DNA from: a plasmid
Length of the DNA: 64,000 nucleotides
Direction: 5' to 3' (one strand)
Sequence record: NZ_CP024444.1
The translations under genes were made by a program, and so were the position numbers. Positions 20,205 to 38,421 of this stretch are shown piece after piece; position 1 is the first letter of the stretch, and every line of letters starts with the position of its first letter. The notes under the pieces were generated by a model. That model was not told where the DNA came from and did no database searches. It worked only from the letters and a program-made list of their open reading frames with translations.

Positions 20205-21189
20205 TACCCCACTCTCAACACTTTTAAGTGGGATTGAAACAAAGAAGGCATGAACTTAAACTTTAATCAATGACCAAAAAGATTAGAGGATAAGCCATGC
20301 CCATAGATGAATTTATCATTAAAATCTATCTAATGGTAGATGACTACTACAAAAAGATTGTAACAAACCGCCTAAGACAAGGCGGATATGCACCTAAACT
20401 GACCGACAGTGAAATCATCACCATGGAGTTAGTGGGTGAATTTTTACAGATGGACACCGATTCACAAATCCATCAGTATTTTAAACAGCATTGGCAAACA
20501 TGGTTTCCTAATCTAGGCTCATACCCCAACTTTGCTAAGCAGTGCGTTAATTTGCTACAAGTAAAAACTTTGATACAACAGCATATCGTTAAACAGTATG
20601 GACAAGACAACATTCATTTTATTGATGGCTTTCCAATCCCTGTGTGTCAATATGCCAGAGCCTATCGGCATAAAACCTTCAAGTACGAAGGTAGTTATAG
20701 TTACTGCGCCTCAAAGCAACAAAAATATTTCGGCTTTGAAGGGCATTTACTTATCAATCTATCGGGCATGATAACGAATTTTACCTTTGCCTCTGCCAGA
20801 ATAGATGAAAGACTCGTTGCACCTGATATGCTTGATGATATTAAAGGTTTATTGGGGGCAGATATGGGTTATATTAGCCCTGATTTATCCGAGTATTGCT
20901 TCAAGCGATGTGTTGATTTGCAAACACCGCTTAGAAAAAATATGTCCGATAAAAGACCAATCAGTGTCCTTAATCGTCTTAAAAATGCTCGTCGCAATAT
21001 TGAGACAGTAATTGGTCAGTTGTCCGAGCGGTTTAATATGCAAAAGGTTAGAGCGAGAGATTTATGGCATTTATCCCACAGATTTATGCGTAAAATCTTG
21101 GCTCATAACTTCTGCTTTGTAATTAATAAACAGTTAGGTAATCCGCCACTTCAGTTTGAACTGCTTATTTCAAGTTGAGAGTGGGGTAT
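20205..21189 (+). mobile_element. IS982-family insertion sequence, copy 1
   Basis: Terminal inverted repeats ACCCCACTCTCAAC ... GTTGAGAGTGGGGT enclose a 293 aa DDE transposase. Confidence 0.8.
20297..21178 (+). CDS. IS982-family transposase
   Basis: Motif YCASKQQKYFGFEGHLLINLSGMITNFTFASA matches the IS982 DDE core. Confidence 0.85.
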   Translation: MPIDEFIIKIYLMVDDYYKKIVTNRLRQGGYAPKLTDSEIITMELVGEFLQMDTDSQIHQYFKQHWQTWFPNLGSYPNFAKQCVNLLQVKTLIQQHIVKQYGQDNIHFIDGFPIPVCQYARAYRHKTFKYEGSYSYCASKQQKYFGFEGHLLINLSGMITNFTFASARIDERLVAPDMLDDIKGLLGADMGYISPDLSEYCFKRCVDLQTPLRKNMSDKRPISVLNRLKNARRNIETVIGQLSERFNMQKVRARDLWHLSHRFMRKILAHNFCFVINKQLGNPPLQFELLISS

Positions 21190-23846
21190 TAATAGGAACT
21201 TTTCAACTCATTTGCTAAAAATGATGCAGTGCGACTATCAAGGTTCTGTGCTACCTGTTTTGGTGTTCCTGCCACAACAATATTCCCACCAGCATTTCCA
21301 GCACCTGGTCCCACATCAATCACCCAATCTGCTTGTGCAACGGCACGCATATCATGCTCAATCATAACCACGGTATTACCCGCATCGACTAATCGCTGCA
21401 ATTGAACTAACAATCGATCTACATCTGATGGATGCAAACCTGTAGTTGGCTCATCAAGTATATACAGTGTATTTCCACGCTGATTGCGTTGCAGCTCGGT
21501 CGCCAATTTAATACGTTGCGCTTCTCCACCAGATAGTTCAGTCGCTGGTTGCCCTAAACGTAAATAACCAAGACCAATTTCCTTTAATAATTGTAGTGAA
21601 CGAGCAATCGAGACCTCTCCATCAAAAAAATCACGTGCTTCATTGACGGTCATTTCTAATACTTCAGCAATATTACGTCCATTCCAGCGAATTTTCAGAG
21701 TGTCATCATTATATCGAGCACCATGACATGTCGGACAAGGGGCATATACACTTGGCATAAACAATAATTCTACACTGACAAAGCCTTCACCTTCACAAGT
21801 TTCACATCGCCCTTTAGCCACATTAAATGAAAAACGTCCAGCATCATAATGAGCTTGGAGAGCTTCAGGAGTCCCAGCAAATAACTTTCTAACATGATCA
21901 AATAAACCCGTATAAGTTGCCAGATTAGAACGTGGAGTACGGCCAATTGGTTTTTGATCAACCTGTACCAGACGCTTTATAGCCTCCACATCACCAGCTA
22001 GAGAACCTCGTGTAACCTCGGTAACCAACATTCCTTCATTTAAAGGATTATCTTCATTATTGTTTTCAGTTTCAGATTCATTGCCTAAATATGAAAGTAC
22101 TAACTCAGGTAAAGCTTGAGAAACGAGACTAGATTTACCTGAACCTGAAATACCTGTAACTGCTGTAAGTACACCAAGAGGTATACGAGCATCAATATTA
22201 TGCAGGTTATGTCGGTAAATATTGTTAAGTTCAAGCCAACCAGAGGGTGTACGTCCATAACTTTGAGTAACTGGGATTTTATTAAATAAATAACTTGCAG
22301 TACGTGAAGCTGAAATCTCACTTAAACCCTGAGGTACCCCACTATATAAAATATTACCACCTTGCTCTCCTGCATCTGGTCCAACATCCACTAACCATTG
22401 AGCACGACGCATGAGCTCTAAATCATGCTCTACAACAAATACGGAGTTCCCAGCATCTCTTAATTTATCGAGGGAATCATATAATGACTGACTATCTGAA
22501 GGATGTAATCCAGCAGACGGCTCATCCAGTACGTAAACTACACCAAATAGCATAGAACTTAATTGTGTTGCTAAACGCAAACGTTGTAACTCTCCAGCTG
22601 AAAGAGTCGGTGTGGCTCTATCTAATGTTAGATAACCAAGGCCTAACTGGCGTAATTGATTTAAACGCCCTACCACACCACTTGCTAAACGCTGGGCAGC
22701 AATTTTCTTTTCATCTGAAAGTGCTGAAGTACGTCTTACATCTGGAGATACAGAATGCACTGCTCTACCTGTTGTTGCTCGTTCAGATCTATCAAGTTGG
22801 GTTACTTTATTATTAGTCTTTTCGCCAGCATCATGAGCGTCGAAATCGCCAAGAACAATGGGTTCAAGCAGGCAAGTTAATTTATCCAAAGAAAGTTGCA
22901 TAAACTCACCAATATCTACTCCTGCAAAGGTAATAGATAAGGCTTCTGGCTTAAGTCGTTTACCATGGCAGGAAGGGCATATTTTTCCTTCCATAAAACG
23001 TGAAACACGTTTTTTCATCAACGTACTTTGGGTATTAGCAAAAGTATGAAGGACATAGCGACGAGCACCAGTGAAAGTGCCCATATAGCTGGGTTCTAGT
23101 TTACGTTTAAGTGCAGATTGAGTCTCAGCGGGGCTTAAACCAGCATAGACAGGAACTGTTGGGGTTTCTTCAGTAAATAAAATCCAATCTCGATCCGATT
23201 GCGGTAAATCTTTCCATGGTCGATCAACATCATACCCTAGGGTTACTAGGATATCGCGTAAGTTTTGCCCGTGCCAAGCAGGTGGCCATGATGCGATAGC
23301 TCTCTCACGAATACTGAGTGTCGGGTCAGGAACCATTGTCGATTCTGTAACTTCATAAATGTGACCTAAACCATGACAGGTAGGACAAGCACCTTGAGGA
23401 GTGTTCGGCGAAAAGTCCTCGGCATATAACATTGGCTGATCGGCAGGATATGCACCAGCACGCGAATAAATCATTCGAACGAGACTTGATAAAGTTGTTA
23501 CACTTCCAACAGAAGAACGGGTATTACTTGCACCACGTTGTTGTTGCAATGCGACTGCTGGTGGTAGACCATCAATAGCATCAACATCTGGTACTCCTGC
23601 CTGATCAATTAAGCGTCTTGCATAAGGTGCAACAGATTCGAAATATCTTCTTTGTGCTTCAGCAAAAATAGTCCCAAAAGCAAGTGATGATTTTCCCGAA
23701 CCCGATACACCTGAGAAAACAACAAGTGCATTTCTTGGGATAGAAACATCTACATCCTTAAGGTTATGTTCACGCGCACCTCGAACTTCAATACAATTAT
23801 TAGATAAAGTAATGTTATTGGGTTCACCAAAAGAATGTGTTTTCAT
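21189..23846 (-). CDS. UvrA-family ABC ATPase paralog (excinuclease ABC subunit A-like, 885 aa)
   Basis: Two ABC ATPase modules (GVSGSGKSSLAF and GISGSGKSSL) with interleaved CxxC zinc modules. The N-terminus (RGAREHNLKDVDVSIPRNALVVFSGVSGSGKSS) is UvrA-like. It is shorter than the canonical 940 aa UvrA. Confidence 0.85.
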   Translation of the reverse strand: MKTHSFGEPNNITLSNNCIEVRGAREHNLKDVDVSIPRNALVVFSGVSGSGKSSLAFGTIFAEAQRRYFESVAPYARRLIDQAGVPDVDAIDGLPPAVALQQQRGASNTRSSVGSVTTLSSLVRMIYSRAGAYPADQPMLYAEDFSPNTPQGACPTCHGLGHIYEVTESTMVPDPTLSIRERAIASWPPAWHGQNLRDILVTLGYDVDRPWKDLPQSDRDWILFTEETPTVPVYAGLSPAETQSALKRKLEPSYMGTFTGARRYVLHTFANTQSTLMKKRVSRFMEGKICPSCHGKRLKPEALSITFAGVDIGEFMQLSLDKLTCLLEPIVLGDFDAHDAGEKTNNKVTQLDRSERATTGRAVHSVSPDVRRTSALSDEKKIAAQRLASGVVGRLNQLRQLGLGYLTLDRATPTLSAGELQRLRLATQLSSMLFGVVYVLDEPSAGLHPSDSQSLYDSLDKLRDAGNSVFVVEHDLELMRRAQWLVDVGPDAGEQGGNILYSGVPQGLSEISASRTASYLFNKIPVTQSYGRTPSGWLELNNIYRHNLHNIDARIPLGVLTAVTGISGSGKSSLVSQALPELVLSYLGNESETENNNEDNPLNEGMLVTEVTRGSLAGDVEAIKRLVQVDQKPIGRTPRSNLATYTGLFDHVRKLFAGTPEALQAHYDAGRFSFNVAKGRCETCEGEGFVSVELLFMPSVYAPCPTCHGARYNDDTLKIRWNGRNIAEVLEMTVNEARDFFDGEVSIARSLQLLKEIGLGYLRLGQPATELSGGEAQRIKLATELQRNQRGNTLYILDEPTTGLHPSDVDRLLVQLQRLVDAGNTVVMIEHDMRAVAQADWVIDVGPGAGNAGGNIVVAGTPKQVAQNLDSRTASFLANELKSSY

Positions 23847-23928
23847 GTTTCTACCCTCTATCGCTTAAAAAGTCGTAAGCTAATAATTATTAAAATATTT
23901 TCTATTAATTCCTAAAATTAAAGTTAGC

Positions 23929-25221
23929 TTAATTCTTAGGAATAGATTTACTAATATCTTCTTTTCTTACATTTGTGATAAGTCTTGAACCACGATAACC
24001 CACACTATGATTCCACAACCAACTTAAGGCAACGTTTAAACGACTTTGCACACCAATCAAAAAGTAAATATGTATAAGTTTCCAAAACCACCAAGCGAGT
24101 ACTCCTTGTAGTTGAAATTTACCCATATCAACAACTGCGCGACTACGTCCAATTGTTGCTAGATTACCTTGATGATGATATTTAAATGGCTCTTTTATAT
24201 CTTTGCCTTTTAATCGATTATCAATGGTTTTCGCAACATATTTTCCTTGTTGTTTGGCGGCTGGTGCTATACCTGGTACTAACTTACCATCTTCCATAGT
24301 AACTGCCGCGGTATCACCAATGACGAAAATTTCAGGATGCCCTGTCACAGTTAGATTTGAATCAACCAACACACGCCCTGCACGATCAGATTCAACATTT
24401 AACCAACGAGCTGCTGGAGATGCTTGTACGCCAGCAGCCCAAATAATTGTTTTTGCAGGTAGCTGTTTTCCATCATAAACAACACCATCTTCTGAACAAC
24501 TTGTCACTGGTGTTCCAAGTACAACCTCAACACCAAGTTGTTCAAGTGCCTGACGGGTATAGCTAGACAACTTTTCAGGGAAAACTGATAATAAACGTGG
24601 ACCGGCTTCAATCAATACCACTCGAGATTCACGAGGATCTATCAAACGAAAATCTCGAGATAACGTATCTTTTGCCAGTTCTGCAATAGTTCCTGATAGC
24701 TCAACTCCCGTCGGACCACCTCCAATGATCACAAATGTTTGTAAAGCCTTTCTTAAGATTGGATCTTTGGTACGTTCAGCTTCTTCAAAGGCAGCCAGAA
24801 TTCGTTCTCGAATATTTGTTGCATCCCCCAAGGTTTTTAAACCTGGTGCAAATCGCTCCCATTCATCATGACCAAAATAAGCATGAGTAGCACCTGTCGC
24901 AATAACTAAAGTGTCATAATGCAACTTTTCGCCATCATCAAGAACAACTAGTCGGCTACCCACTTCAATGCCCTGCACCTCTCCCATTAAGGTACGGACT
25001 TCAGGACGGTTTCGAAAAATATATCGAATAGGCCAAGCGATTTCAGATGTTGATAAAGATGAGCCTGCGACTTGATACAATAATGGTTGAAATAGATGGT
25101 GATTTCTTCTGTCGATAATAGTTATATCGACATTGACACCAGCGAGACTATTTGCAGCCTCTATCCCTCCAAAACCAGCTCCAATAATAACAACACGATG
25201 ACGTCCTGTAGACTTTACCAT
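23929..25221 (-). CDS. ndh: type II NADH dehydrogenase (NDH-2)
   Basis: Two Rossmann dinucleotide-binding motifs (VVIIGAGFGG and FVIIGGGPTG) and a C-terminal membrane-anchor helix. Confidence 0.8.
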   Translation of the reverse strand: MVKSTGRHRVVIIGAGFGGIEAANSLAGVNVDITIIDRRNHHLFQPLLYQVAGSSLSTSEIAWPIRYIFRNRPEVRTLMGEVQGIEVGSRLVVLDDGEKLHYDTLVIATGATHAYFGHDEWERFAPGLKTLGDATNIRERILAAFEEAERTKDPILRKALQTFVIIGGGPTGVELSGTIAELAKDTLSRDFRLIDPRESRVVLIEAGPRLLSVFPEKLSSYTRQALEQLGVEVVLGTPVTSCSEDGVVYDGKQLPAKTIIWAAGVQASPAARWLNVESDRAGRVLVDSNLTVTGHPEIFVIGDTAAVTMEDGKLVPGIAPAAKQQGKYVAKTIDNRLKGKDIKEPFKYHHQGNLATIGRSRAVVDMGKFQLQGVLAWWFWKLIHIYFLIGVQSRLNVALSWLWNHSVGYRGSRLITNVRKEDISKSIPKN

Positions 25222-25240
25222 GAGTTTATCTCCCTATTTC

Positions 25241-26071
25241 CTAGCACTTAAGAGCTAAAGCATGATGCACAATATGTGCACGAATAAAGCTCGCAATGAA
25301 GTAATAACTATGGTCGTAACCTTCTCTTAGGTTTAAAACTAAAGGGTGATCCATTTCAGTACATACTTTTCGTAGTCTTTCTGGTTGAAGTTGGCTATCA
25401 AGAAATTCATCCCCTAAGCCTTGATCAACTAATAATGGAATTTTATGAATTGAATTCTTAACTAATTCAACAGTATCGTATTGTTTCCATGATTCCTGAT
25501 CAGCTCCTAAATAAGCATTGAAAGCTTTTTGTCCCCAAGGAACTATGGATGGATTAACAATAGGCGAAAAAGCTGATACGCTCAGATATAATTCGGGATT
25601 ACGTAAGGCAATCGTTAATGCCCCATGTCCTCCCATTGAATGACCACTAATACCGCGTTTTTGTGACGCAGGGAAATGAGCCTCAATTAGCGCTGGAAGT
25701 TCATGCACAATATAATCATACATTTGAAAATGTGCAGCCCAAGGATCTTGAGTGGCATTCAGATAAAATCCAGCACCTTGACCGAGATCATATGCAGGAT
25801 CGTCAGCTACATTTTCTCCACGAGGGCTAGTATCTGGTGCAACAATAATAATTCCATGTTCAGCCGCATATTGTTGCGCTGCAGACTTCGTAATAAAATT
25901 TTGTTCTGTGCAGGTAAGACCACTGAGCCAGTACAGTACTGGTAATTTATCTTGATGCACCTGAGGAGGCAGATAAATAGCAAATTTCATCATGCATCCG
26001 AGTACTTCAGATTTATGTTGATAAACGTCTTGCCAACCACCAAACATTGCATGATGTTCAACACGATCCAT
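25241..26071 (-). CDS. fghA: S-formylglutathione hydrolase (esterase D)
   Basis: N-terminus HAMFGGWQDVYQH, nucleophile elbow GHSMGGHGAL and a C-terminal H of the triad. Confidence 0.88.
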   Translation of the reverse strand: MDRVEHHAMFGGWQDVYQHKSEVLGCMMKFAIYLPPQVHQDKLPVLYWLSGLTCTEQNFITKSAAQQYAAEHGIIIVAPDTSPRGENVADDPAYDLGQGAGFYLNATQDPWAAHFQMYDYIVHELPALIEAHFPASQKRGISGHSMGGHGALTIALRNPELYLSVSAFSPIVNPSIVPWGQKAFNAYLGADQESWKQYDTVELVKNSIHKIPLLVDQGLGDEFLDSQLQPERLRKVCTEMDHPLVLNLREGYDHSYYFIASFIRAHIVHHALALKC

Positions 26072-26144
26072 ATCGTTTTCCTTATTACAAAAAAGTTGTG
26101 ATCTCCCTTTATTTTTAGAGAGGTCTTGTTTGTCGTTAAAATGA

Positions 26145-27479
26145 TTATTTTTCTGGTATTACATCACTATGCTTTTGTCTAATCTTTCGCATTGTCCACC
26201 AAATAGAAAACATCACTAACGGTACTAATATCGCAATTGTGAATTCAGGCGCTGCTATATCATGAACTGAAGGTATACCTTTCACTAAATATGCAAGTAA
26301 ACTAACAACATAATAAGAAATCGCAGCAACGGATAAACCCTCTACCGTTTGTTGAAGGTGTAATTGTTGTCTAGCACGATTATTCATTGATGTGAGCAAA
26401 TCTCGATTTTGACGCTCTAACTCAACATCGATCCATGAACGCAAAAGAGAAATAGCACGTGTTAATTTTTCAGAAAGAGTAGCTTGGCGTTCTTTAACAG
26501 ATTGACATGTCCTCATCGCTGGAGCGATACGACGCTCAAGAAAGTCGTGCCATGTGCAATATCCAGATATAGACTTTTCTGAAAGTCTATTCAAACGTTC
26601 TTCAACGAGTTCATAATAAGCACGACTGGCGCCAAATCGGTAAAGATTCGCTGCCACATTGGCTTCTAGTTCAGTTGCAAGCGTCGTAAGTTCAAATAGC
26701 AGTACATCATTATCACGTCTTAATTCTGTTCCTTTATTCATTTCATCAGTGATCGCGGCAAGCCGTAGCTCCATCTGACGTAGTTCAAAGGTCATTGTTC
26801 GAATTAATGGCAAAGCAAGTAATGCCAATGTTCGATATGTTTCAATCTCTAATAAACTTTGAGCAAGTGCGCCTGCACGAGCCTCTGTCAAACCACGATC
26901 AAGAATAAGAATCCGGGTCAGACCGTCATTATCTTGTCTGAAATCAGTCAAAATAGCTGCTGTTTCATTTTCTACTAGTGAATAGCACAAACTGACTGTA
27001 TCAAAACGATTTACCAATTTTTCAGATTCAGTAGCCCATGGCAATACTTGCAAGCAGATACCTGAGATAATTTCACCTGGTGGAACAAAGCCATTTTTAA
27101 ATGGATCTTCACCTTTAGGCAATCCCGTTGGTACATCTAGTTCTGCACACCAAAGATATGTGGAAAATTCTGTGTGTTTTTCACAATGCAAATTTCCTTC
27201 ATCCCAAGTCAAACCATGAAGTGGTGATTCTTCTTTTTGAGTTTTTTTCAAGCCAAAGCGATCTGATAGTTCATCCAGCGCAATTTGGTCCTTGCTTGGA
27301 TCTCCCTCTGTCAAGAAAGCTAACTGCAATAAGTTTCGTGGAGCTTGTATTAATAAAGGTGGACGGGCATGTACCTCTCCCACAGCCCTCACTCGATCTG
27401 CATGTGCTGGCATACCATATACAAATGCAGTCGAGGAAGTTTGTGGGGTCGTTTTGATAGCGGGTTCTTCTTTCATCAC
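26145..27479 (-). CDS. hypothetical protein with two C-terminal TM helices, inside the formaldehyde-detox operon
   Basis: 444 aa. Soluble N-terminal domain with a coiled-coil-like middle, and two C-terminal hydrophobic helices. Function unknown. Confidence 0.6.
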   Translation of the reverse strand: MMKEEPAIKTTPQTSSTAFVYGMPAHADRVRAVGEVHARPPLLIQAPRNLLQLAFLTEGDPSKDQIALDELSDRFGLKKTQKEESPLHGLTWDEGNLHCEKHTEFSTYLWCAELDVPTGLPKGEDPFKNGFVPPGEIISGICLQVLPWATESEKLVNRFDTVSLCYSLVENETAAILTDFRQDNDGLTRILILDRGLTEARAGALAQSLLEIETYRTLALLALPLIRTMTFELRQMELRLAAITDEMNKGTELRRDNDVLLFELTTLATELEANVAANLYRFGASRAYYELVEERLNRLSEKSISGYCTWHDFLERRIAPAMRTCQSVKERQATLSEKLTRAISLLRSWIDVELERQNRDLLTSMNNRARQQLHLQQTVEGLSVAAISYYVVSLLAYLVKGIPSVHDIAAPEFTIAILVPLVMFSIWWTMRKIRQKHSDVIPEK

Positions 27480-27510
27480 GACCTCAGTTTTTCAAGTTTA
27501 ATAAAGAGAA

Positions 27511-28089
27511 TTAAGCTTCTTTATACGTTCCTTTCTGCTTAGCTGAATGTGTAGCTAAAGCATCCATTAAGCCCGGTGACAAACAATCATAAGGTTCAAG
27601 TTTAAGTTCACGTAAACGATTGCGGATAGCATCCATATTTGATGGAGGAGTTCCACTTTCAATCACAGACGAAACAAAAGCTGCAAAACCAGGAGCAGAC
27701 CATCCTTCTTGTGGAGAAAGCTCCGTATGAACAAAGTCTAAACCGTAGAATGCATGATCTTTATTTTCGATACGACCAAAAAGGTGCGCTCCACATTCAC
27801 GACATGCGTGACGTTGAATTGCAGCATTCTCATCAACAATATGAAGCTTTTGTGGATTTGCTACAACGCTTACTTTGTCACGTGGTACAACTGCAATTAC
27901 AGCGAACGTAGCACCTTCTGGTTTCCAGCATTTAGTACATCCACAAGCATGGTTATGCAATGTTTGAGCACCAACCTCAACTTGAACTTTATCCGTTGAG
28001 CATAGACATTCTAAGATTCCACCGTCGAAGTTTTCTTGGCTTGGACGGATCCCATGATCAAGAGAAGGGTGTATATGAATTTCGCTCAT
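27511..28089 (-). CDS. gfa: glutathione-dependent formaldehyde-activating enzyme (Gfa/CENP-V family)
   Basis: Cys clusters [11 protein letters not shown] and [11 protein letters not shown]. Start moved to the MSEIHIHP Met, which has an AAGGAAAG RBS (the ORF track began 15 codons upstream). Confidence 0.8.
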
Positions 28090-28164
28090 TTTACTTTCCT
28101 TAAGATGAATTGATCGACATGGTGTGAAATTCACACCATGGATTTTTAATATGAGATTAGTTAA

Positions 28165-29286
<1,122 letters not shown>

Positions 29287-29332: not shown

Positions 29333-29608
29333 TTAACGAAGATACGATCTAACGATAGAAATAGTTTCGTCAATTGACTTTCTTTGAGAGTTAGTTCTAG
29401 TTTCATTATCTGGAAATTCTTCTCGCAAATAACTTTCTAGTACAACCGCCATTAAACCATTTACAGCCCCACGGACTGCGGCTAGCTGATGAAGAATTAC
29501 ACCACACTCAGTACCTTCATCAAGTGCCTGCTCAAGAGCAGCGACTTGTCCTTTGATACGTCTAACACGAGTAAGCGCTTGTTTCTTCTCACGATCATTG
29601 TATGGCAT
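29333..29608 (-). CDS. frmR: FrmR-type (CsoR/RcnR family) formaldehyde-responsive repressor
   Basis: 91 aa. Pro2, Cys35 (TECGVIL) and the conserved LTRVRRIKGQ / AAVRGA helices. Near-colinear with E. coli FrmR. Confidence 0.88.
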   Translation of the reverse strand: MPYNDREKKQALTRVRRIKGQVAALEQALDEGTECGVILHQLAAVRGAVNGLMAVVLESYLREEFPDNETRTNSQRKSIDETISIVRSYLR

Positions 29609-29674
29609 ATATTCAACCTTCTCTCATTTAGATTTAGTCATCATACTATACTCTCTTATCGTTAAACTCATAAT

Positions 29675-29700
29675 ACTATACCCCCCCATGGTATAAAAGG
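29675..29700. promoter_or_regulatory. FrmR/RcnR type-1 operator (TATACC-C5-AT-GGTATA) in the frmR promoter
   Basis: AT-rich inverted repeat flanking a C7 tract, about 70 bp upstream of the frmR start. Read directly. Confidence 0.6.
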
Positions 29701-29902
29701 GGTAAATTAAAAATAATTAATATTTTTTGAAGAAAATTATCTTTTAGTTATACTATTGCTTTGCATAATTAATTTAATATTATTAAAAATCAGTAATTTA
29801 GTAAAAAAATATTAAAAAGAAACCTTTGCACGAATAAACACACAAAAGTTCATTAAATTGGTATAATACAATAAAATCAATCACCTAGCAAAAAACACGA
29901 CT

Positions 29903-30895: not shown

Positions 30896-31337
30896 GGTTA
30901 TTGTGTCTGTTGGTTAGTAAGCTCAGCCAATAGACACAAATTTAACAACCATTTGGAGATTTTATCCATGATTTAGCCATTGTTTTGCTTATTTCATTGC
31001 CATTCTTTGTTTTTTTTCGGTTTGGTGGTATGCCTCGAGCAAAGGGGCTGTTTCGTGCAAAGGTCTCAAAAATATATTTTTTAAAAAAAAGAAAATTTAT
31101 ATTAAATATTCTTATATTAACACTTCTGTATATCAAATTATCTTTTAGCAAAAACACGCTTAAAAAATAAATAAATTAAATCAATAATTTATGTTAAAGT
31201 AAAAAAAACCTAGTAATCAAACCGATTGTTAGAAAAGAATATTTCAATTGTTTAAATTAAAATCAATTAAAATAAAACCATGATACAAATTAATCTATCG
31301 AATTTACTTAATCATTTTCTTTTTAACTAGTATGCAT

Positions 31338-32909
31338 TCAACTTGAATAATTCTTCATAAACAAATTAAAATCCATGACTTGCTGCTGCTCTAACACTTC
31401 TTGCTCAAGAAGAGACTTTTGTGCAACTGATTCAAAAAATTGTTTACGCTCATCCGTCAAAACCTGTTTCGAAAAGTTATTCAAATGTTGCTGGCATTGA
31501 TGTAAAGCGAAGTCATTAAAACCTATATTATGTTGAAACATATATGTTAAGACCTTAGAGGATGGCGTTAAGAATGAATTCTCAATTTTAGCCTGTTGAG
31601 CATATATAGCTTCTTTATGTTTATTAATATCATTTGCATGATCGAGTAAATTAGCTAGAGGTCTAATATTAGCCAACAACTCTTGAGCCCAATCATACAT
31701 AGCAATTGAACTATCTCCATTTTGGAGTTCTAAATTTGGCTTTCGCCCCTTTTCAGCCACAAGGTGAAAGTTATTATTCGCCTGATTAAGGCTATCTTGA
31801 CTTAATGATGGGCTTTTATATAAAGCACAAAATAATAAAAATGCATCCAAAAAGTAAGCTTGCTCTAAATCAATTCCTAACGAAGAAAAAGGATTAATGT
31901 CCAAACAACGTATCTCGACATACTGTACCCCACGTGCATTTAATGCATGAAGCACACGCTCACCAGAATATGGAACTCGTTTTGGTCTAATATTTGAATA
32001 ATATTCATTTTCTATTTGCAAAATATTAGTATTAAGTTGCACCCATTCGTTATTTTTATGGGTACCAATATTCGTATACAAGGGGTAAGGTGTTTCTAAA
32101 GCCTCTTTTATACTATGAATGTATGAATTGAGACTATCAAAACAAGGAGAGATAGTAGATTGTGCACTACTTTGATAACCAATCTTACTCATTCGAAGAC
32201 TAGTCGCATAAGGCAAGTAGTAAGTGTCATTATCAAATTTTTTAAATTGATCTAAGTTTTTTTTTAAAAAATTTGAATTAACCGCTGGGGATGCTCCGAA
32301 TAGATAAATCAATAGCCAACTATAACGGTGAAAATTTCGTATCATATCCATATAAATTGATGACCGATCTTTATTTTCGAAAGTAGTTATATTATCTAGT
32401 TGGTATAAAAGCTGAATTAATTGCTCAGGTAATGAAAAATTATAGTGAATACCTGCTATACATTGCATGGCCCTACCATATCGAAGAGCTAATCCTTTTC
32501 GATAAACGTGTTTAAACTTACCAATATTTGAATTGCCATACTCAGCTATAGGAATCCTTTCTTCTTCTGGCAAAAGAGAAGGCATTGATGAACTCCAAAG
32601 GTATTCATTATTTAGTTTTGTATAAACAAAACGATGAATATCATTAAGTTCTGCAAGGACCTCTGAAGCACTCAAACAAGGTGGCGTAACAAATTCCATT
32701 AATGATTCGGAATAGTCTGTAGTAATAAACTCATTTGTCAAAGCTGATCCTAGTGTTTTTGGATGCGGTGTAAGCACCAAATTCCCATTCTTCGTTACAC
32801 GCAAACATTCACGTTCTATCCCTCGCAAACACATAGTCAATAAAGGTAAATTTTCACCTAGAATATTTAGACGATGAGTATAGTGTTCATCAAATATTAA
32901 TTTATCCAT
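31338..32909 (-). CDS. gshA: glutamate-cysteine ligase (gamma-glutamylcysteine synthetase)
   Basis: 523 aa. N-terminal GIERECLRV signature and overall length and colinearity with enterobacterial GshA. Confidence 0.85.
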   Translation of the reverse strand: MDKLIFDEHYTHRLNILGENLPLLTMCLRGIERECLRVTKNGNLVLTPHPKTLGSALTNEFITTDYSESLMEFVTPPCLSASEVLAELNDIHRFVYTKLNNEYLWSSSMPSLLPEEERIPIAEYGNSNIGKFKHVYRKGLALRYGRAMQCIAGIHYNFSLPEQLIQLLYQLDNITTFENKDRSSIYMDMIRNFHRYSWLLIYLFGASPAVNSNFLKKNLDQFKKFDNDTYYLPYATSLRMSKIGYQSSAQSTISPCFDSLNSYIHSIKEALETPYPLYTNIGTHKNNEWVQLNTNILQIENEYYSNIRPKRVPYSGERVLHALNARGVQYVEIRCLDINPFSSLGIDLEQAYFLDAFLLFCALYKSPSLSQDSLNQANNNFHLVAEKGRKPNLELQNGDSSIAMYDWAQELLANIRPLANLLDHANDINKHKEAIYAQQAKIENSFLTPSSKVLTYMFQHNIGFNDFALHQCQQHLNNFSKQVLTDERKQFFESVAQKSLLEQEVLEQQQVMDFNLFMKNYSS

Positions 32910-32931
32910 ATATCAAACCTTACATTCAAAG

Positions 32932-33702
32932 TTAATGTGCACCATGAACTACCCTATTAATTAAAGTTACTATAAGAATTCCTATAAAAAGCCAAAGAAT
33001 TTGGATAATGGTATCTTTAGTTGTCCAACGCTGTTGTAATTGAGGAATTAGATCTGATAAAGACACATAAATAAAACTACTACTAGCCAAAATCATAAGG
33101 AAAGGTTGCCATTGCTGTAATCCGGCCAGTAGAAAATATCCACTTAATCCACCTAAAGCTGTCATTGCACCAGCCATAGTAAGCTTTAGTACAGCAGCAC
33201 TACGATGATTTTTCTGCCTAAGAACTACCAAATCACCCATATGATGAGGTACTTCATGTACAAGAACCGAAGCAGCTGCAATCAGCCCAAGATGTATGTC
33301 AACAATGAAAATTGAAGCAATCAAAATACCATCACCAAAACAATGGACTCCATCACCCAATAATAGTGACCAACCATTAGTTGTATGTGGCTCATGTGAA
33401 TGATTATGCTCATGTCCGTGATGCCACAATTCAGCTTTATTAAGTAGAAAAAAGAAAACTAAACCAATTAGAAGTGCTAAAAAAAGTTGATGTGTATCTA
33501 TATTGCTTTCAAAAGCCTCTGGTAACAAATGTGTAAAACTTGTTGCTAATAACGCACCAGCTGCTAGACCTAAAAAGCCTTGTTGTACATAACTATCTTG
33601 ATTGTTAATAGCTGCCCCAGCTCTCGTTACCAATAAGTCTGCGATCAAAACGCTACCTATTCCTACGACCAGAGTGACTAGGGTAATAATGAAAAGTGAC
33701 AT
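32932..33702 (-). CDS. ZIP-family divalent metal transporter (ZupT-like)
   Basis: Eight TM segments, a His-rich loop HHGHEHNHSHEPH, and the ZIP signature HEVPHHMGDLVVL in TM4/5. Confidence 0.75.
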   Translation of the reverse strand: MSLFIITLVTLVVGIGSVLIADLLVTRAGAAINNQDSYVQQGFLGLAAGALLATSFTHLLPEAFESNIDTHQLFLALLIGLVFFFLLNKAELWHHGHEHNHSHEPHTTNGWSLLLGDGVHCFGDGILIASIFIVDIHLGLIAAASVLVHEVPHHMGDLVVLRQKNHRSAAVLKLTMAGAMTALGGLSGYFLLAGLQQWQPFLMILASSSFIYVSLSDLIPQLQQRWTTKDTIIQILWLFIGILIVTLINRVVHGAH

Positions 33703-33812
33703 AGATTTAATACATACCTAGTAGACAATCATTTTTAACTAATCGCATATACAAGCCGAAATTCGTTCGATACAACATCAAATTTGTAGATGTTGTATTA
33801 AGCAATCTAATA

Positions 33813-33835
33813 TACTATACCCACCTATAGTATAA
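33813..33835. promoter_or_regulatory. second FrmR/RcnR-type operator (ATACTATA-CCCACC-TATAGTAT) upstream of ZIP-gshA
   Basis: Same architecture and flanks (AATACTATACC...GTATAAAAGGG) as the frmR operator. About 110 bp upstream of the ZIP start. Confidence 0.5.
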
Positions 33836-34017
33836 AAGGGATTTTATAAAAAAGTTTAAGCCACTCAACAATTAATAGGAAATTATTTTAAATTCAATTA
33901 AATAGATACAAAAATCATGACATTCTTAATCAAATCTAGTCTATTGAGAAATTTTTATTTTTTACATTATACAAAAGAGCCTAAACAAAGGCCCTTTCAT
34001 CACTATTCTCTGAGCTC

Positions 34018-34125
34018 TTAGTATGCTAATTGAATTAAGAATCTAAAAATTCCTGCAATAACCGCTAATGTAACTACACCAATTACCCAAAGTAAGATAA
34101 ACCATCCTGTCTGTGAAAGTTTCAT
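34018..34125 (-). CDS. cydX: cytochrome bd small subunit (CydX-like), 35 aa
   Basis: Unannotated ORF MKLSQTGWFILLWVIGVVTLAVIAGIFRFLIQLAY. A single TM with a W-rich N-terminus like CydX. Lies 8 nt downstream of cydB, the canonical position. Confidence 0.5.
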   Translation of the reverse strand: MKLSQTGWFILLWVIGVVTLAVIAGIFRFLIQLAY

Positions 34126-34133
34126 ACAAACTC

Positions 34134-35138
34134 CTAATGATAACCAGCATCACCAACACGAACTTTACCTTTAAAAATCCAATATGAAAAAATGGTATAA
34201 GTCAGAATAATAGGAATGAGCAACAGTGCACCAATCAAAGCAAAAAGTTGACTATTCGCTGGGGCTGCAGCCTGCCAGATCGTTACTGAAGGTGGAATAA
34301 TATAAGGCCACAAACTAATTAAAAAACCTGTATAAGCAAGGAAGACTAAGCCTAACGTATAAATAAAAGGACTAAGTTCTTTCTTTTGTTTACATGCCCG
34401 TAAAGCCATTCCCGTAAAAATAAGTACTAATACAGGAATTGGACTAAAGTACATTAACTGAGGCTGACTAAACCAGCGTTCAGCAATTTGCGGTTGTGAA
34501 AGTGGTGTATAGATAGTAACTAATCCAAAAATAATAAATACTGAAATGATCAGTTTAGGCATCATTGAAAACATTTTTTCTTGAATTTCAGCATCAGTTT
34601 TATAAATTAACCATCCACATCCTAAAGTTGCATACAGAACGACTACACCAATACCAGTAAACACAGAGAAAGGTGTCAACCAGTCCAACTGCCCACCAGC
34701 ATAAACACCATTTAAGGTTTTAATACCCTGAATATATGCACCTAGAACTACACCTTGAAGAAAACCTGCAAATACTGAACCACTAATAAAAGCTTTATCC
34801 CACAGATGCTTAGTACGGTTTGCTTTAAATCGGAATTCAAAAGCAACTCCACGAAATATTAATGCGATCACCATCAAAATAATCGGCATATAAAGTGCAG
34901 AAAGAACTGTTGAATAAACTAGCGGAAAGGCAGCAAAAAGCCCCGCCCCACCAAGCACCATCCAAGTTTCATTACCATCCCAGACCGGAGCAACGGTATT
35001 CATTAGCACATCTCGCTCATTGGAACCTTTAATGAAAGGAAATAAAATTCCGATACCTAAGTCAAACCCATCTAGAATGACATAAATCAATACACCAATT
35101 CCAATAATGACAATCCAAATAAGAGATAAATCAATCAT
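34134..35138 (-). CDS. cydB: cytochrome bd ubiquinol oxidase subunit II
   Basis: N-terminus MIDLSLIWIVIIGIGVLIYVILDGFDLGIGIL is the CydB signature. Eight TM segments. The start overlaps cydA. Confidence 0.88.
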   Translation of the reverse strand: MIDLSLIWIVIIGIGVLIYVILDGFDLGIGILFPFIKGSNERDVLMNTVAPVWDGNETWMVLGGAGLFAAFPLVYSTVLSALYMPIILMVIALIFRGVAFEFRFKANRTKHLWDKAFISGSVFAGFLQGVVLGAYIQGIKTLNGVYAGGQLDWLTPFSVFTGIGVVVLYATLGCGWLIYKTDAEIQEKMFSMMPKLIISVFIIFGLVTIYTPLSQPQIAERWFSQPQLMYFSPIPVLVLIFTGMALRACKQKKELSPFIYTLGLVFLAYTGFLISLWPYIIPPSVTIWQAAAPANSQLFALIGALLLIPIILTYTIFSYWIFKGKVRVGDAGYH

Positions 35139-35607
35139 GGCGATTCTCCCGTATTGATTCTAGTTTATCTAAGCTTCCTTCAACCGCACTCATTGGTCGC
35201 ATCGGTGTTTGACCAACATCAGCATGTTCGCCTGAATGTACACTTAAGAATTGCGGGCCTTTATGCATTAGCTTTAACATGTAATAAATGCCAATACCGA
35301 AAACTACAAAATAAACCAGAACAAAAATAATTAGAGTTATTCCAACTTGCGATGCGGATACGGGTGACAACGCATCTTTAGTACGAAGTACATTGTAAAC
35401 AACCCAAGGTTGACGACCGACCTCTGTTGTAAACCAACCAGCTAGAAGAGCGATAAAACCTGACGGACCCATATATAATGCAAAACGTTGAAACCATTTA
35501 CTTTCATATAAACGGTCAGAACGACGCAGCCATAAGCCTAAGACGGCTAATAGCAGCATTAACATTCCCATACCAACCATGACACGGAAACTCCAAAAGA
35601 TGATCAA
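35131..35607 (-). pseudogene. cydA: cydA, C-terminal fragment only (truncated by IS3-family insertion)
   Basis: The 158 aa fragment matches the last TM helices of CydA (GRQPWVVYNVLRT). The open frame runs up to the IS3 terminal repeat at 35626, and no N-terminal part of about 350 aa is found elsewhere. Confidence 0.8.
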
Positions 35608-35720
35608 AGAATTCGGCCGATCTTCTGAACCGTCCTAGTTTTATCAGAGACAGGTTTACTTGAGTCAGGCAGCATAGCCTGACGGAATTAATGAACAATA
35701 GTACATATTTTCTGCATCTA

Positions 35721-36716
35721 CTACGAGCATAGCTCTCCGTCTTGCACTCGGGCGAAGCAGTGCTTCGCTAATCCTCGTTCAGGCGATACATATCCATTGG
35801 TAGAATGCAATCGTTCATAGTTGTACCAGTGTACCCAATCAAGGGTTGCTAGCGCAACATCATTTACGCCATCCCATTCCTGTTTCAAATAATCAATCAC
35901 CTCCGCTTTATATAGCCCATTCACGCTTTCAGCTAGGGCATTATCTGAGCGAGGAAATAGCGAAGCACTGCTTCGCCCGGGTGCAAGACGTAGGGCTATG
36001 CCCGAAGTGGAGTCACCAGTTGTACCAACCGATGCAGCAAGCCCCGATTGTTTAAGCCGTTCACCGTACTTAATCGATAGATACTGACTACCTTTATCAG
36101 AATGATGAATTACCCCGCTTGGTCTACCTCTAGCGTCTAAGGCTTGATTTAGGGCATCTAAGACCAGCTGAGTGTCCATATGATTCGATACTTTCCAACC
36201 CACAATAACTCGCTTAAATACGTCAATCACAAAGGCAGTATAGACCCAACCTGATTTAGTTTTAATGTAGGTAAAATCAGCGACCTGAGGAGCACTGCTC
36301 CGCAAGAGTCTTTTCTTGTTTGGGGCATCGGCAGTAAAGTTGCGTTTAACAAGGTCATTCGGCTTGTCTTGGTCGTCTCTCTGCTTCGTGGTGATTTTGC
36401 CTTTGCCTCGCCATACGCCTTGTATGCCAAGCTGTTTCATTAAGCGTTCAACGGTGCAACGAGCAAGCTTTGGCAAACCCTCTTGTTTGAGCTTGTGCCA
36501 AACTTTACGAATGCCATAGCGACAGCCACTGGCTTGCCAAATCTGTTTGATTTGTGCCATGAGGTGTTTGTCGCTTTGTTTGCGTCGACTTTGCTTTTCT
36601 GGGTTGTCTTGTTCATCTTTGATGCGATAGTAGGTGGATGGGGCAATTGGCAGGATTTTGCAAATCGGCTCGACCCCATATTTTTCTTTTTCATCATCAA
36701 TGAATTTGACCATCAC
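35721..36716 (-). CDS. IS3-family transposase OrfB (integrase core), carrying an atypical internal insert
   Basis: DDE region HSDKGSQYLS...DNALAESVNG. About 20 extra aa (SGIALRLAPGRSSASLFPR) sit where the family has GNCYDN. This coincides with a 33 bp inverted repeat at 35739-35771 and 35958-35990. Confidence 0.75.
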   Translation of the reverse strand: MMVKFIDDEKEKYGVEPICKILPIAPSTYYRIKDEQDNPEKQSRRKQSDKHLMAQIKQIWQASGCRYGIRKVWHKLKQEGLPKLARCTVERLMKQLGIQGVWRGKGKITTKQRDDQDKPNDLVKRNFTADAPNKKRLLRSSAPQVADFTYIKTKSGWVYTAFVIDVFKRVIVGWKVSNHMDTQLVLDALNQALDARGRPSGVIHHSDKGSQYLSIKYGERLKQSGLAASVGTTGDSTSGIALRLAPGRSSASLFPRSDNALAESVNGLYKAEVIDYLKQEWDGVNDVALATLDWVHWYNYERLHSTNGYVSPERGLAKHCFARVQDGELCS

Positions 36717-37030
36717 TTGGGTTTGCGGTCGAGCTCCGCCTGGGCTTCAATACCGGCTGCCTTGCGAATGATTTCGTTCGCTTGTTTGAGTTCTCTGATT
36801 TCTCGCTCAAGCTCAGCGATACGAGCCGCTTGGCTTTCAGTGCTTATAGTCACAGGATTTTGCTTAGCTAGGTGCTTTTGATGCCATGAGCGTAGGGTTT
36901 CAGGGGTACACCCGAATTTGGGGGCGATGGCTTGGATGGCCGCCCACAGTGAGGGATAATCTTTTTGTGATTCAATCAGTAATTCGACGGCTCTACTCTT
37001 AACTTCTGTTGGGTATTGTTTGCTTTTCAT
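36713..37030 (-). CDS. IS3-family transposase OrfA (HTH)
   Basis: 105 aa. HTH followed by a leucine-zipper-like ELEREIRELKQANEI segment. Confidence 0.8.
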   Translation of the reverse strand: MKSKQYPTEVKSRAVELLIESQKDYPSLWAAIQAIAPKFGCTPETLRSWHQKHLAKQNPVTISTESQAARIAELEREIRELKQANEIIRKAAGIEAQAELDRKPK

Positions 37031-37437
37031 AAGGGTATTGTCTCAGAGTTTTAGGTCTCCGACAATCCCGGGACGGTTCACTTTTGGTCGTCAAGTTTTA
37101 AAAGACTTAGTTTGTAAAAGCTCATTATTAGGAGATTTAGCTCTAAAGAAGAAAGTACATGAACACTTATTTAAGTTTTTAGAAAATACTATTAATTCTC
37201 TTTATAATCCAGATGCATATAAAGATAGTAGAATCGATATGGTATTTAAGGAAAAAGGCTTTACAATACGTAACAATATTTTAAGTTCAGATGTAAGACA
37301 AGATTTTAATAAAAAAAATTTTTCTGACCCAATTCACAAAATTTTTAAAGATATTGGAATTTTTTAAAGTTATAGATGCAACTCTAACCTTATAACTTTA
37401 ATTGTATAAGGTTAGTAGATAGCGCATTATATATTTA

Positions 37438-38421
37438 ACCCCACTCTCAACACTTTTAGAGGGGGTTGAAACAAAAAAGGCATGAACTTAAACTTTAATC
37501 AATGACCAAAAAGATTAGAGGATAAGCCATGCCCATTGATGAATTTATCATTAAAATCTATCTAATGGTAGATGACTACTACAAAAAGATTGTAACAAAC
37601 CGGCTAAGACAAGGCGGATATGCACCAAAGCTAACCGACAGTGAAATTATCACCATGGAGATAGTGGGTGAGTTTTTACAGATGGACACCGATTCACAAA
37701 TCCATCAGTATTTTAAACAGCATTGGCAAACATGGTTTCCACAAATAGGCTCATATCCCAACTTTGCCAAGCAGTGCGTCAATTTGTTACAGGTAAAAAC
37801 TTTGATACAACAGCATATCGTTAAACAGCATGGGCAAGACAACATTCATTTTATTGATGGCTTTCCCATTCCGGTGTGTCAATATGCCAGAGCCTATCGG
37901 CATAAAACCTTCGAATATGAAGGTAGCTATAGTTACTGTGCCTCAAAGCAACAAAAATATTTTGGCTTTGAAGGACATTTACTCATTAATCTATCGGGCA
38001 TGATAACCAATTTTACCTTTGCCTCTGCTAAGATAGATGAAAGGCTTGTTGCACCTGATATGCTTGATAATATCAAAGGCTTGTTAGGTGCAGATATGGG
38101 CTATATTAGCCCTGATTTATCTGAGTATTGCTTTAAGCGATGTGTTGATTTGCAAACACCGCTTAGAAAAAATATGCCCGATAAACGACCAATCAGTGTA
38201 CTTAATCGTCTTAAAAATTCTCGTCGCAATATTGAGACGGTGATTGGTCAGTTATCACAGCGGTTTAATATGCAAAAGGTGAGAGCGAGAGATTTATGGC
38301 ATTTATCCCACAGATTTATGCGTAAAATCTTGGCTCATAACGTTTGCTTTGTGATCAATAAACAGTTAGGTAATCCCCCACTTCAGTTTGAGTTGCTTAT
38401 TTCAAGTTGAGAGTGGGGTAT
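37438..38421 (+). mobile_element. IS982-family insertion sequence, copy 2 (same orientation as copy 1, about 96% identical)
   Basis: Same terminal repeats CCCCACTCTCAAC ... GTTGAGAGTGGGGT. The transposase differs from copy 1 at about 10 aa. Confidence 0.8.
37529..38410 (+). CDS. IS982-family transposase
   Basis: 293 aa, a paralog of the 20297-21178 protein. Confidence 0.85.
   Translation: MPIDEFIIKIYLMVDDYYKKIVTNRLRQGGYAPKLTDSEIITMEIVGEFLQMDTDSQIHQYFKQHWQTWFPQIGSYPNFAKQCVNLLQVKTLIQQHIVKQHGQDNIHFIDGFPIPVCQYARAYRHKTFEYEGSYSYCASKQQKYFGFEGHLLINLSGMITNFTFASAKIDERLVAPDMLDNIKGLLGADMGYISPDLSEYCFKRCVDLQTPLRKNMPDKRPISVLNRLKNSRRNIETVIGQLSQRFNMQKVRARDLWHLSHRFMRKILAHNVCFVINKQLGNPPLQFELLISS

Follow-up and report, generated by a model that had tools for sequence, protein, structure and literature searches.

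A probable IS982-family composite transposon carrying Acinetobacter-type cargo on a Moraxella osloensis megaplasmid

Overall structure of the unit

We analyzed a 64,000-nucleotide stretch of the plasmid record NZ_CP024444.1 (hereafter, the window) and conclude that its segment 20206–38419 (18,214 bp), in which two direct IS982-family copies surround an interior of ~16 kb, is very probably a composite (compound) transposon bracketed by related, non-identical insertion sequences. Three sets of observations carry this conclusion. The two copies are closely related, share identical 14-bp ends and both have intact open reading frames; a single 7-bp duplication typical of this IS surrounds the whole unit, while the individual copies have none of their own; and the uninterrupted target is found in a related replicon and nine further contigs. 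An earlier note on this DNA had proposed a composite transposon, a reading that we uphold on the evidence of the empty sites with a single ATTAAAT, the confirmed element ends and the missing individual duplications. As mobile elements go, the unit is well proven but of an ordinary kind, as expected from mobile-element biology. Our literature searches returned no relevant named transposon or publication on the 18.2 kb unit.

Two isoforms of one insertion sequence

Copy 1 lies at 20206–21187 and copy 2 at 37438–38419, both on the plus strand and both 982 bp long with a perfect 14-bp terminal inverted repeat, ACCCCACTCTCAAC. Each encodes an intact 293-aa transposase (20297–21178 and 37529–38410, respectively), scoring 248.9 and 247.9 bits against the NF033520 transpos_IS982 model (cutoff, 130) and also matched by Pfam DDE_Tnp_1_3. 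Members of the IS982 family, as defined in ISfinder, are about 1 kb long, have one ORF, for the transposase, and are bounded by inverted repeats that start with AC. The family assignment of the bracketing copies rests on the model score above cutoff, the length of 982 bp, the single ORF, the inverted repeats, and the short duplication. The earlier note had described two copies in direct orientation at 20205–21189 and 37438–38421 with about 96% identity; the orientation was right, the limits were off by 1–2 nt, and the measured identity is 93.1%. The 68 substitutions, with no indels, are spread over positions 22–956 of the element, and the transposase genes differ by 48 synonymous and 11 non-synonymous codon changes. 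Under the ISfinder naming rule, this degree of identity would probably make the two copies separate IS.

Copy 1 is 100% identical over its 982 bp to copies at no fewer than four other loci, each with its own duplication, and copy 2 shares 98.2% identity with at least 16 copies in the chromosome of M. osloensis FDAARGOS_1202; no record in the contig collection contained the exact copy-2 transposase. In the plasmid collection, only fragments of this IS were found, all of them in Moraxella. The bracketing element is native to M. osloensis. This species is skin- and hospital-associated.

The identity of copy 1 with copies elsewhere indicates that the IS pair is not a recombination chimera, and the 93% identity between the copies indicates that they were not born by duplication during the event, so that the composite was assembled from two isoforms. 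A replicative cointegrate origin, which would give identical IS copies, was rejected for the same reason. The non-chimeric state of the copies also bears on a two-step origin, in which a solo IS982 at ATTAAAT received a circle carrying a related IS and the cargo by a single crossover within the IS. Such a history predicts the same outer-flank signature, and recombination between IS982 copies does occur in the population: mosaic copies at junctions without a duplication, found at two loci (L006 and L009), show what its products look like. A crossover between 93% identical isoforms would, however, leave reciprocal chimeras, whereas copy 1 matches independent copies over its full length and copy 2 has no copy-1-like stretch between positions 22 and 956, so that the exchange would need to have hit the terminal 21 or 26 identical bases. 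Nor was a solo IS present at the site in any of the 10 related contigs described below. We therefore regard the two-step crossover, already largely refuted by the non-chimeric copies, as very improbable.

Target duplication and empty sites

The motif ATTAAAT directly abuts the left end of copy 1 (20199–20205) and recurs at the right end of copy 2 (38420–38426), a junction that is also present in the metagenome contig L064. These flanks match over exactly 7 nt, compared with 2 nt and 1 nt for each copy's own two flanks. The 7-nt match had been recognized in the earlier note, which placed the motifs at 20198–20204 and 38422–38428, and its statement that the inner flanks match less well (ATTAATA to the right of copy 1, TATATTTA to the left of copy 2) proved accurate. 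The element ends that it assumed, ACCCCACTC...GAGTGGGGT, were borne out by 21 independent insertions of this IS, whose shared ends are also written ACCCCACTCT...AGAGTGGGGT; 16 of these are in the FDAARGOS_1202 chromosome (M. osloensis), one is in strain FFTB-42985 and four are in metagenome contigs. All 21 insertions had their own duplication, of 6 bp (n = 6), 7 bp (n = 14), or 8 bp (n = 1) and 82% A+T overall, which makes the 7-bp ATTAAAT a duplication of modal length. Neither of the two outcomes named in advance as contrary to the composite reading, individual duplications at either copy or true ends that shift the flanks out of register, was observed.

Comparison with replicons lacking the module, proposed in the earlier note, revealed empty sites with a single ATTAAAT in pMOXF1 of M. 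osloensis (CP040258.1) and, beyond it, in nine independent contigs from other genomes and metagenomes. The nine were found by exact-protein look-up, and all carry an identical DotD-like gene; in the plasmid collection, the backbone site occurred in one record only, pMOXF1. IS-related differences aside, the window is collinear with pMOXF1 at 99.6–99.8% identity on the left and 95–98% on the right. On one side of the target spacer is the DotD-like type IV secretion gene and on the other a 40-nt tandem-repeat array. We rejected as unparsimonious the idea that the unit had been precisely excised from all ten empty-site contigs. The filled left junction and the filled right junction (remnant, IS, ATTAAAT, backbone) both recur in a second, independent sample.

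These data dispose of the reading that two IS copies inserted independently into backbone DNA and acquired similar outer flanks by chance. The IS has a preference for AT-rich sites, of which this target is one, and the earlier note had cautioned that chance matching was not negligible. Yet among 420 cross-pairings of flanks from the 21 unrelated insertions, none matched over 7 nt and one matched over 6 nt, which puts the observed match far beyond chance; neither copy has its own duplication, the interior matches Acinetobacter plasmids at 99.5–100% identity and not the backbone, and the whole 18.2 kb is missing from ten related contigs that retain one ATTAAAT. The empty sites by themselves already refute independent insertion, to which we give a vanishingly small probability.

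The original target of copy 1 is also visible. A contig with an identical UvrA allele reads uninterrupted through ...AAAAATTGATTAATAGGAA, which identifies the ATTAATA to the right of copy 1 as one half of an earlier duplication; the other half stayed behind.

Acinetobacter origin of the cargo

The cargo at 21188–35625 is 99.5–100% identical to, and in the same gene order as, an island on Acinetobacter baumannii plasmids such as pABA-2f10 (NZ_CP026129.1) and pCCBH31258 (CP101888.1), where the order is uvrA-ndh-fghA-DUF3422-gfa-frmA-frmR-gshA-ZIP-cydXBA-frmR/rcnR-like-uvrB. All cargo genes lie on the minus strand. The first, at 21189–23846, encodes a full-length UvrA paralogue of 885 aa (TIGR00630, 874.9 bits; cutoff, 729.8) in which profile positions from about 120 to 266 are unmatched and whose length equals that of WP_000848145.1 from pABA-2f10; its stop codon is 1 nt from the end of IS982 copy 1. 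It is followed by ndh (23929–25221), for a type II NADH dehydrogenase-like flavoprotein; the record of the identical product lists Pyr_redox_2 and NDH2_C domains, and in L002 the annotation reads NAD(P)/FAD-dependent oxidoreductase.

Next are fghA, S-formylglutathione hydrolase (25241–26071; TIGR02821, 417 bits; cutoff, 281.7), a DUF3422 protein gene (26145–27479; PF11902, 460.7 bits), gfa, S-(hydroxymethyl)glutathione synthase (27511–28134; TIGR02820, 326 bits; cutoff, 234.6), frmA/adhC, S-(hydroxymethyl)glutathione dehydrogenase (28165–29274; TIGR02818, 727.9 bits; cutoff, 544), and frmR, a formaldehyde-responsive repressor (29333–29608; NF008464, 145 bits; cutoff, 133). With frmR, frmA, gfa, and fghA all above equivalog cutoffs, the unit carries a complete gene set for a predicted glutathione-dependent formaldehyde pathway. 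Beyond frmR are gshA, glutamate-cysteine ligase (31338–32909; TIGR01434, 640.7 bits; cutoff, 393), and a gene for a ZIP-family metal transporter (32932–33702), so annotated in L002 and with a weak ZupT match. Judging by annotation, the formaldehyde pathway, gshA, NDH-2, and the UvrA paralogue may confer tolerance of formaldehyde and of aldehyde disinfectants.

The last cargo genes belong to a cytochrome bd operon. An open reading frame at 34018–34125 encodes a cydX-like small protein of 35 aa (DUF2474 in the annotation of its L002 and L003 homologues) and is followed by cydB, cytochrome bd subunit II (34134–35138; PF02322, 323.7 bits; TIGR00203, 170 bits; cutoff, 117), and by a 3′ fragment of cydA (35131–35625) that covers about the last third of subunit I and only positions 311–418 of the 418 in PF01654. 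The match to the A. baumannii plasmids stops exactly at 35625, where their cydA continues. The unit thus lacks a cydABX operon with intact subunits I and II, and its cytochrome bd part is non-functional because cydA was truncated by an IS3-family element. The earlier note listed the cargo genes correctly and missed the IS3-family element and the remnant beside it; its label of respiratory genes is overstated, given the truncated cytochrome bd. The Acinetobacter island was only partly captured: copy 1 cuts it 1 nt past the uvrA stop and the IS3-family element cuts it within cydA, so that the unit has neither a full cydA nor the second repressor nor the uvrB paralogue. It further differs from the island in an IS5-family element between frmR and gshA.

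Other elements in the interior

The IS5-family element (29819–31067, plus strand, 1249 bp; transposase 29903–30895; NF033581, 285.6 bits; cutoff, 140) has inverted repeats GAAACCTTTGCACGAA / GAGACCTTTGCACGAA and AAAAA on both sides. It is absent at the same position in pABA-2f10, where its flanks join with a 5-nt overlap. The IS3-family element (35626–37080, minus strand, 1455 bp; orfA 36713–37030, orfB 35721–36716; NF033516, 273.5 bits; cutoff, 160) has TGAACCGTCC...GGACGGTTCA as its ends; copies on M. osloensis plasmids match it at 94% identity. Its flanks show no 3-bp duplication (TTC versus CTT), which indicates that it joins DNA of two origins. Between it and IS982 copy 2 is an AT-rich remnant of 357 bp (37081–37437) that matched nothing in the plasmid collection; L064 and L065 contain it at 100% identity, and the only relative of its translation is itself, in two metagenome contigs.

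That the present cargo is the exact DNA that transposed is less certain than the composite structure itself and is not proven. The composite may have inserted as a unit with a different interior, the Acinetobacter cargo having replaced or joined it later through IS982 and IS3-family recombination. In the metagenome sample ERZ28580989, the right end is the same (remnant, IS982, ATTAAAT, backbone), but before it stands a truncated, oppositely oriented IS3-family copy that meets the remnant at the same junction nucleotide as in the window, and before that copy come the metal-resistance genes cueR-copA-copZ-glxA, which are elsewhere in pMOXF1. The same inverted IS3-remnant junction was seen in a second sample (L065), and the IS3-family element of the window itself, lacking a duplication, joins DNA of two origins. 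Against this, metagenome scaffolds cross repeats of 1–1.2 kb, where mis-joining is possible; the left-hand contig of ERZ28580989 (L008) runs on into DNA that flanks a different IS982 locus and is also present in L066; the IS-uvrA junction is present in at least five samples; and inversion of the IS in place is impossible by simple recombination. Either the interior may have been remodelled after insertion or the ERZ28580989 scaffold may have been mis-joined across a repeat, and we hold a later exchange of cargo to be unlikely.

We also considered whether L008, which reads backbone, ATTAAAT, IS, and other DNA, represents a different cargo at the same site, and judged this unsafe: its right-hand 394 nt are the flank of another IS982 locus, and the only differences between its IS and copy 1 are at positions 955–956, so that a short-read assembler could have switched copies. 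Neither this 394-nt flank nor the 68-nt flank of L009 had a match in the plasmid collection.

Proposed movement of the unit

We propose that the unit moved as a composite transposon. The IS982-family DDE transposase would have come from either copy, since both ORFs are intact, and would have recognized the two outermost 14-bp inverted repeats, one at the left of copy 1 and the other at the right of copy 2, moving everything between them as one unit. This unit would have entered a pMOXF1-like conjugative megaplasmid at its AT-rich intergenic spacer, where a staggered 7-bp cut at ATTAAAT was presumably repaired into the flanking duplication. We know of no established transposition chemistry for the IS982 family. 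For the mosaic interior, we infer that ~14.4 kb was captured from an 'aldehyde-damage island' of an Acinetobacter-type plasmid, that the IS5-family insertion into the captured island came later, and that on the right side the captured DNA was joined through the Moraxella IS3-family element to the 357-bp remnant beside copy 2.

Against transposition as a composite stands the fact that no second site with another duplication was found for the unit, whose movement is deduced from sequence comparison. Queries with the junction between the remnant and IS982 copy 2 gave 0 matches in the genome and metagenome contig collections, and a search of the metagenome contig collection with the junction between IS982 copy 1 and uvrA likewise gave 0 matches, so that this route gave no evidence of the whole unit inserted elsewhere. 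Only in L009 (sample ERZ27317399) does the IS-uvrA junction have another outer context, and there the IS is mosaic and could be a recombination product.

The outer duplication, the direct orientation, and the non-chimeric copies are predicted alike by composite transposition and by an IS26-like route, in which a circle of one IS982 copy and the cargo was joined by transposase, at the IS ends, to a solo copy at ATTAAAT; the identical 14-bp ends fit both as well. The IS26-like route would further explain why the IS-uvrA junction has a different outer flank in L009 and how the same duplication-flanked pair might contain different cargo in the window and in ERZ28580989. For the mosaic IS of L009, however, ordinary recombination is the better fit, and none of the ten related contigs has a solo IS at the site. 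The bracketing transposases are of the IS982 family and not of the IS6/IS26 family that characterizes IS26-type translocatable units; to our knowledge, targeted conservative joining is documented only for IS6/IS26 and has no IS982 precedent. We consider this route quite improbable and retain composite transposition as the preferred reading.

Relation to known systems and significance

Tn9 is the classical composite transposon with direct IS1 copies. From the same bacterial family as Moraxella, Tn2006 has the structure ISAba1-blaOXA-23-ISAba1 and is listed as ISAba1-flanked (PMC9771954). As in Tn9 and Tn2006, two IS of the same family surround unrelated cargo with the outer inverted repeats intact, one duplication typical of the IS surrounds the whole unit, and related replicons have an empty site. 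Unlike them, the unit is bracketed by IS982-family elements that are distinct isoforms instead of near-identical copies, and it carries stress and detoxification genes, not antibiotic resistance, together with two further IS elements. Closer by family are ISAba4, which mobilizes an adjacent blaOXA-23 with flanking direct repeats, and ISAba825, which has been shown to transpose (PMC9771954). ISAba4 (in Tn2007), ISAba825, and the bracketing IS resemble each other in belonging to the IS982 family and residing in Moraxellaceae hosts; Tn2007 has a single IS copy, whereas in the Moraxella unit two copies of an M. osloensis element bracket the cargo.

The unit documents gene flow between genera in an example that is apparently unnamed: ~14 kb of A. 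baumannii-like DNA has been packaged by the native insertion sequences of M. osloensis and now resides on a megaplasmid of conjugative type in that species. Known composite transposons are dominated by IS1, IS10, IS50, IS26, and ISAba1, and to this list the unit very probably adds an IS982-family case. It also suggests that as little as 93% identity between two isoforms of one IS is enough for them to bracket a unit that has moved once.

IS982 copies and target duplication

The 18,214-bp unit at 20206–38419 is bounded by two IS982-family copies of 982 bp in the same orientation (copy 1, 20206–21187; copy 2, 37438–38419). Both begin with ACCCCACTCTCAAC, end with its exact reverse complement and retain an intact 293-aa ORF, and their transposases score 248.9 and 247.9 bits against the curated IS982-family model (cutoff 130), in agreement with the family and direct orientation assigned in an earlier note made from the sequence alone. 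That note put their identity at about 96%, whereas we measured 93.1%, with 68 substitutions and no indels scattered across positions 22–956. Differences between the transposase codons are mostly synonymous (48 versus 11 non-synonymous), indicating that both genes were kept under selection.

The exact copy 1 transposase is encoded on many public contigs, and an IS 100% identical to copy 1 across 980–982 bp occurs at four independent loci, each with direct repeats: ATGATAAA (8 bp) in contig L004, and the 7-bp ATAATTT, TCTATTT and AAGCATA in L005, L007 and L010, respectively. In the chromosome of M. osloensis FDAARGOS_1202, full-length copies number at least 16; these share 98.2% identity with copy 2, and each has its own 6- or 7-bp repeat. 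Among 21 insertions the repeat, 82% A+T overall, was 6 bp in six, 7 bp in 14 and 8 bp in one; the IS ends assumed earlier are therefore correct, and the modal duplication is 7 bp. In the window, the two flanks of each individual copy match across only 2 and 1 nt, whereas the outer flanks of the pair, left of copy 1 and right of copy 2, have exactly 7 nt in common (ATTAAAT, 20199–20205 and 38420–38426). None of 420 cross-pairings of unrelated IS flanks gave a 7-nt match. The outer match proposed earlier is real, although its positions, like those of the IS copies, had been placed 1–2 nt off.

Empty and filled sites

A plasmid-collection search matched the DNA outside both copies to the 248-kb Moraxella osloensis plasmid pMOXF1 (CP040258.1), in which the site reads ...aaattatgaATTAAATagaaaaaataaag..., with a single ATTAAAT and the 18.2 kb missing altogether. 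Elsewhere the window and pMOXF1 are collinear (99.6–99.8% identity left of the site, 95–98% right of it), apart from an IS256 and an IS5-adhP-IS5 block of pMOXF1 that the window lacks. The same uninterrupted site, with one ATTAAAT, was found in all ten contigs encoding the identical DotD-like protein left of it, two from NCBI genomes (one being pMOXF1 itself) and eight from other samples, which favours insertion of the unit as a whole. Both filled junctions are present in sample ERZ28580989, as backbone-ATTAAAT-IS in contig L008 and IS-ATTAAAT-backbone in scaffold L064.

Transposition versus recombination

Alternatively, a circle with one IS could have recombined into a solo IS resident at the site, which would have turned the resulting pair into reciprocal chimeras of two isoforms. 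Over its entire length, however, copy 1 is identical to independent copies elsewhere, and copy 2 is unlike it throughout, so that a crossover could go unnoticed solely within the 21 or 26 identical bases at the termini. Positive controls for the appearance of IS982 recombination are provided by the mosaic copies of contigs L006 and L009, which are copy-2-like at positions 22–166 and 22–39, respectively, copy-1-like thereafter, and lack a duplication at their junctions. The signature of composite transposition would also be produced by an IS26-like end-directed reaction, but we assign this a low probability: a solo IS at the insertion site was not seen in the ten related contigs, and we know of no precedent in the IS982 family. 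A replicative cointegrate origin was excluded, as it would leave identical IS copies.

Composite transposons are textbook elements, and the empty sites, the 7-nt outer match and the lack of individual duplications uphold the earlier note's proposal that this unit is one. At the sequence level it shows every hallmark of a composite transposon save observation at a second site or an experiment, and we regard this reading as solidly supported. Within the same bacterial family, the IS982-family element ISAba825 is known to be active, and ISAba4, in Tn2007, mobilises adjacent genes (PMC9771954). We searched the literature for a name or publication on this 18.2-kb unit and found none.

The IS982 copies of L006 (2910–3891; chromosomal recG side) and L007 (2856–3837; Rep3 plasmid) have a common right flank and different left flanks, which may reflect plasmid–chromosome fusion via IS982 recombination or an assembly chimera.

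Acinetobacter-type cargo

Beginning at 21188, one base past copy 1, and continuing to 35625, the cargo is 99.5–100% identical to the Acinetobacter baumannii plasmids pABA-2f10 and pCCBH31258. It encodes a UvrA paralogue (885 aa, without a match to region ~120–266 of the UvrA profile), an NDH-2-type flavoprotein, fghA, a DUF3422 protein, gfa, frmA, frmR, gshA, a ZIP transporter, a cydX-like peptide, cydB and a cydA reduced to its final third. In the Acinetobacter plasmids the island extends further, through a complete cydA, another FrmR/RcnR-like repressor and a uvrB paralogue, so its capture was partial. Between frmR and gshA sits an IS5-family element (29819–31067, flanked by AAAAA) with no counterpart at that place in pABA-2f10 or pCCBH31258.

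A contig with the identical UvrA allele and no IS reads uninterrupted through ...AAAAATTGATTAATAGGAA, implying that the ATTAATA right of copy 1 is half of an older duplication. Copy 1 would first have inserted next to uvrA in a donor, duplicating ATTAATA, and the other half would have stayed there when the composite moved. Because the bracketing IS copies and an interior IS3-family element are of Moraxella types and the cargo is of Acinetobacter type, the composite was probably assembled in a Moraxella cell, presumably one that had received Acinetobacter plasmid DNA. The main value of the unit lies in documenting that a formaldehyde/glutathione module passed from Acinetobacter to Moraxella.

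On Acinetobacter plasmids, as seen in pABA-2f10 (6002–24236 of comparison sequence L002), plasmid-borne paralogues of uvrA and uvrB, together with two FrmR/RcnR-type repressors, frame the formaldehyde, glutathione and cytochrome bd genes. The uvrA paralogue alone occurs on more than 100 Acinetobacter plasmids at ~97.7% identity, suggesting a widespread plasmid-borne aldehyde/DNA-damage island.

Possible interior remodelling

The earlier note recognised that cydA is truncated but overlooked the 1455-bp IS3-family element that interrupts it (35626–37080; ends TGAACCGTCC...GGACGGTTCA; orfA and orfB on the minus strand), which shares 94% identity with M. osloensis plasmid copies. The element lacks a 3-bp duplication and hence marks a junction between DNAs of two separate origins. 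An AT-rich remnant of 357 bp (37081–37437) separates it from copy 2, and the only relatives we found for this remnant are its own occurrences in two metagenome contigs. In L064 and contig L065, the remnant meets the other end of an IS3-family copy at the same nucleotide as in the window (...GGACGGTTCA followed directly by CTTTTGG), this copy being inverted (L064 5672–5760, L065 392–480) relative to window 37050–37090. Simple homologous recombination cannot invert the element in place; the opposite orientations may instead reflect targeted re-insertion beside an IS end already present. Scaffold L064 runs on into cueR-copA-copZ and then a truncated glxA, genes that lie ~140 kb away in pMOXF1. 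Either post-insertion remodelling altered the interior in one lineage, or the scaffold was mis-joined across the 1.2-kb repeat. This context makes it less certain that the present cargo is precisely the DNA that transposed, but leaves confidence in the one-time insertion of an IS982-bounded unit intact.

The orfB of the IS3-family element contains two ~60-nt insertions (35722–35780 and 35950–36009) that are mutual inverted copies (89% complementary), internally palindromic, and leave the frame open. They are absent from related copies in L064, L065 and several M. osloensis plasmids, and resemble an in-frame miniature palindromic element. In one contig, the same IS3-family isoform is inserted 7 nt from an IS982 right end, leaving ...GGACGGTTCA, GTGGGGT and ATCTTTAAAT... 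in succession (contig L066, reverse complement, around 474; L008 3892–4285), so IS elements in this setting lie nested within each other; the flank beyond encodes a zinc-type alcohol/formaldehyde dehydrogenase-like N-terminus.

Plasmid backbone

The IS5-adhP-IS5 block of pMOXF1 (224074–227510; 44075–47511 in its stretch L063), whose flanks are directly joined in the window, is another candidate composite transposon on this backbone. Genes in window 1–20000 include those for type IV secretion components of the I-type (Dot/Icm-like), namely a T2SSE-family ATPase, T4SS_TraI and a DotD-like protein, a gene for a ParM/StbA-like protein (15397–16476) and, by collinearity with pMOXF1, topA; despite these secretion components, pMOXF1 is typed as non-mobilizable in PLSDB. 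About 200 bp right of the insertion site, a 40-nt unit, ttcttacgctcaaacccatttttatacgttatttgccatt, is repeated in tandem ~16 times (~38610–39260) versus ~11 times in pMOXF1 (L001 5990–6420), so its number varies. This array, perhaps a set of iterons or a centromere, is the end point of many short-read contigs of this backbone.

Farther right (~40050–63760), a 100–250-nt repeat is dispersed in 18–22 copies, each directly upstream of a small minus-strand gene and carrying on that strand a near-consensus promoter (TTGATT N17 TATTAT) overlapped by two to three copies of the palindrome ACGGTTTAACCGT or its variants (seven exact copies versus none expected). Genes preceded by the repeat in pMOXF1 include ssb and those for a DUF1738 (ArdC-like) protein and several pentapeptide-repeat proteins, and the set looks like a large, commonly regulated leading/establishment-region regulon.
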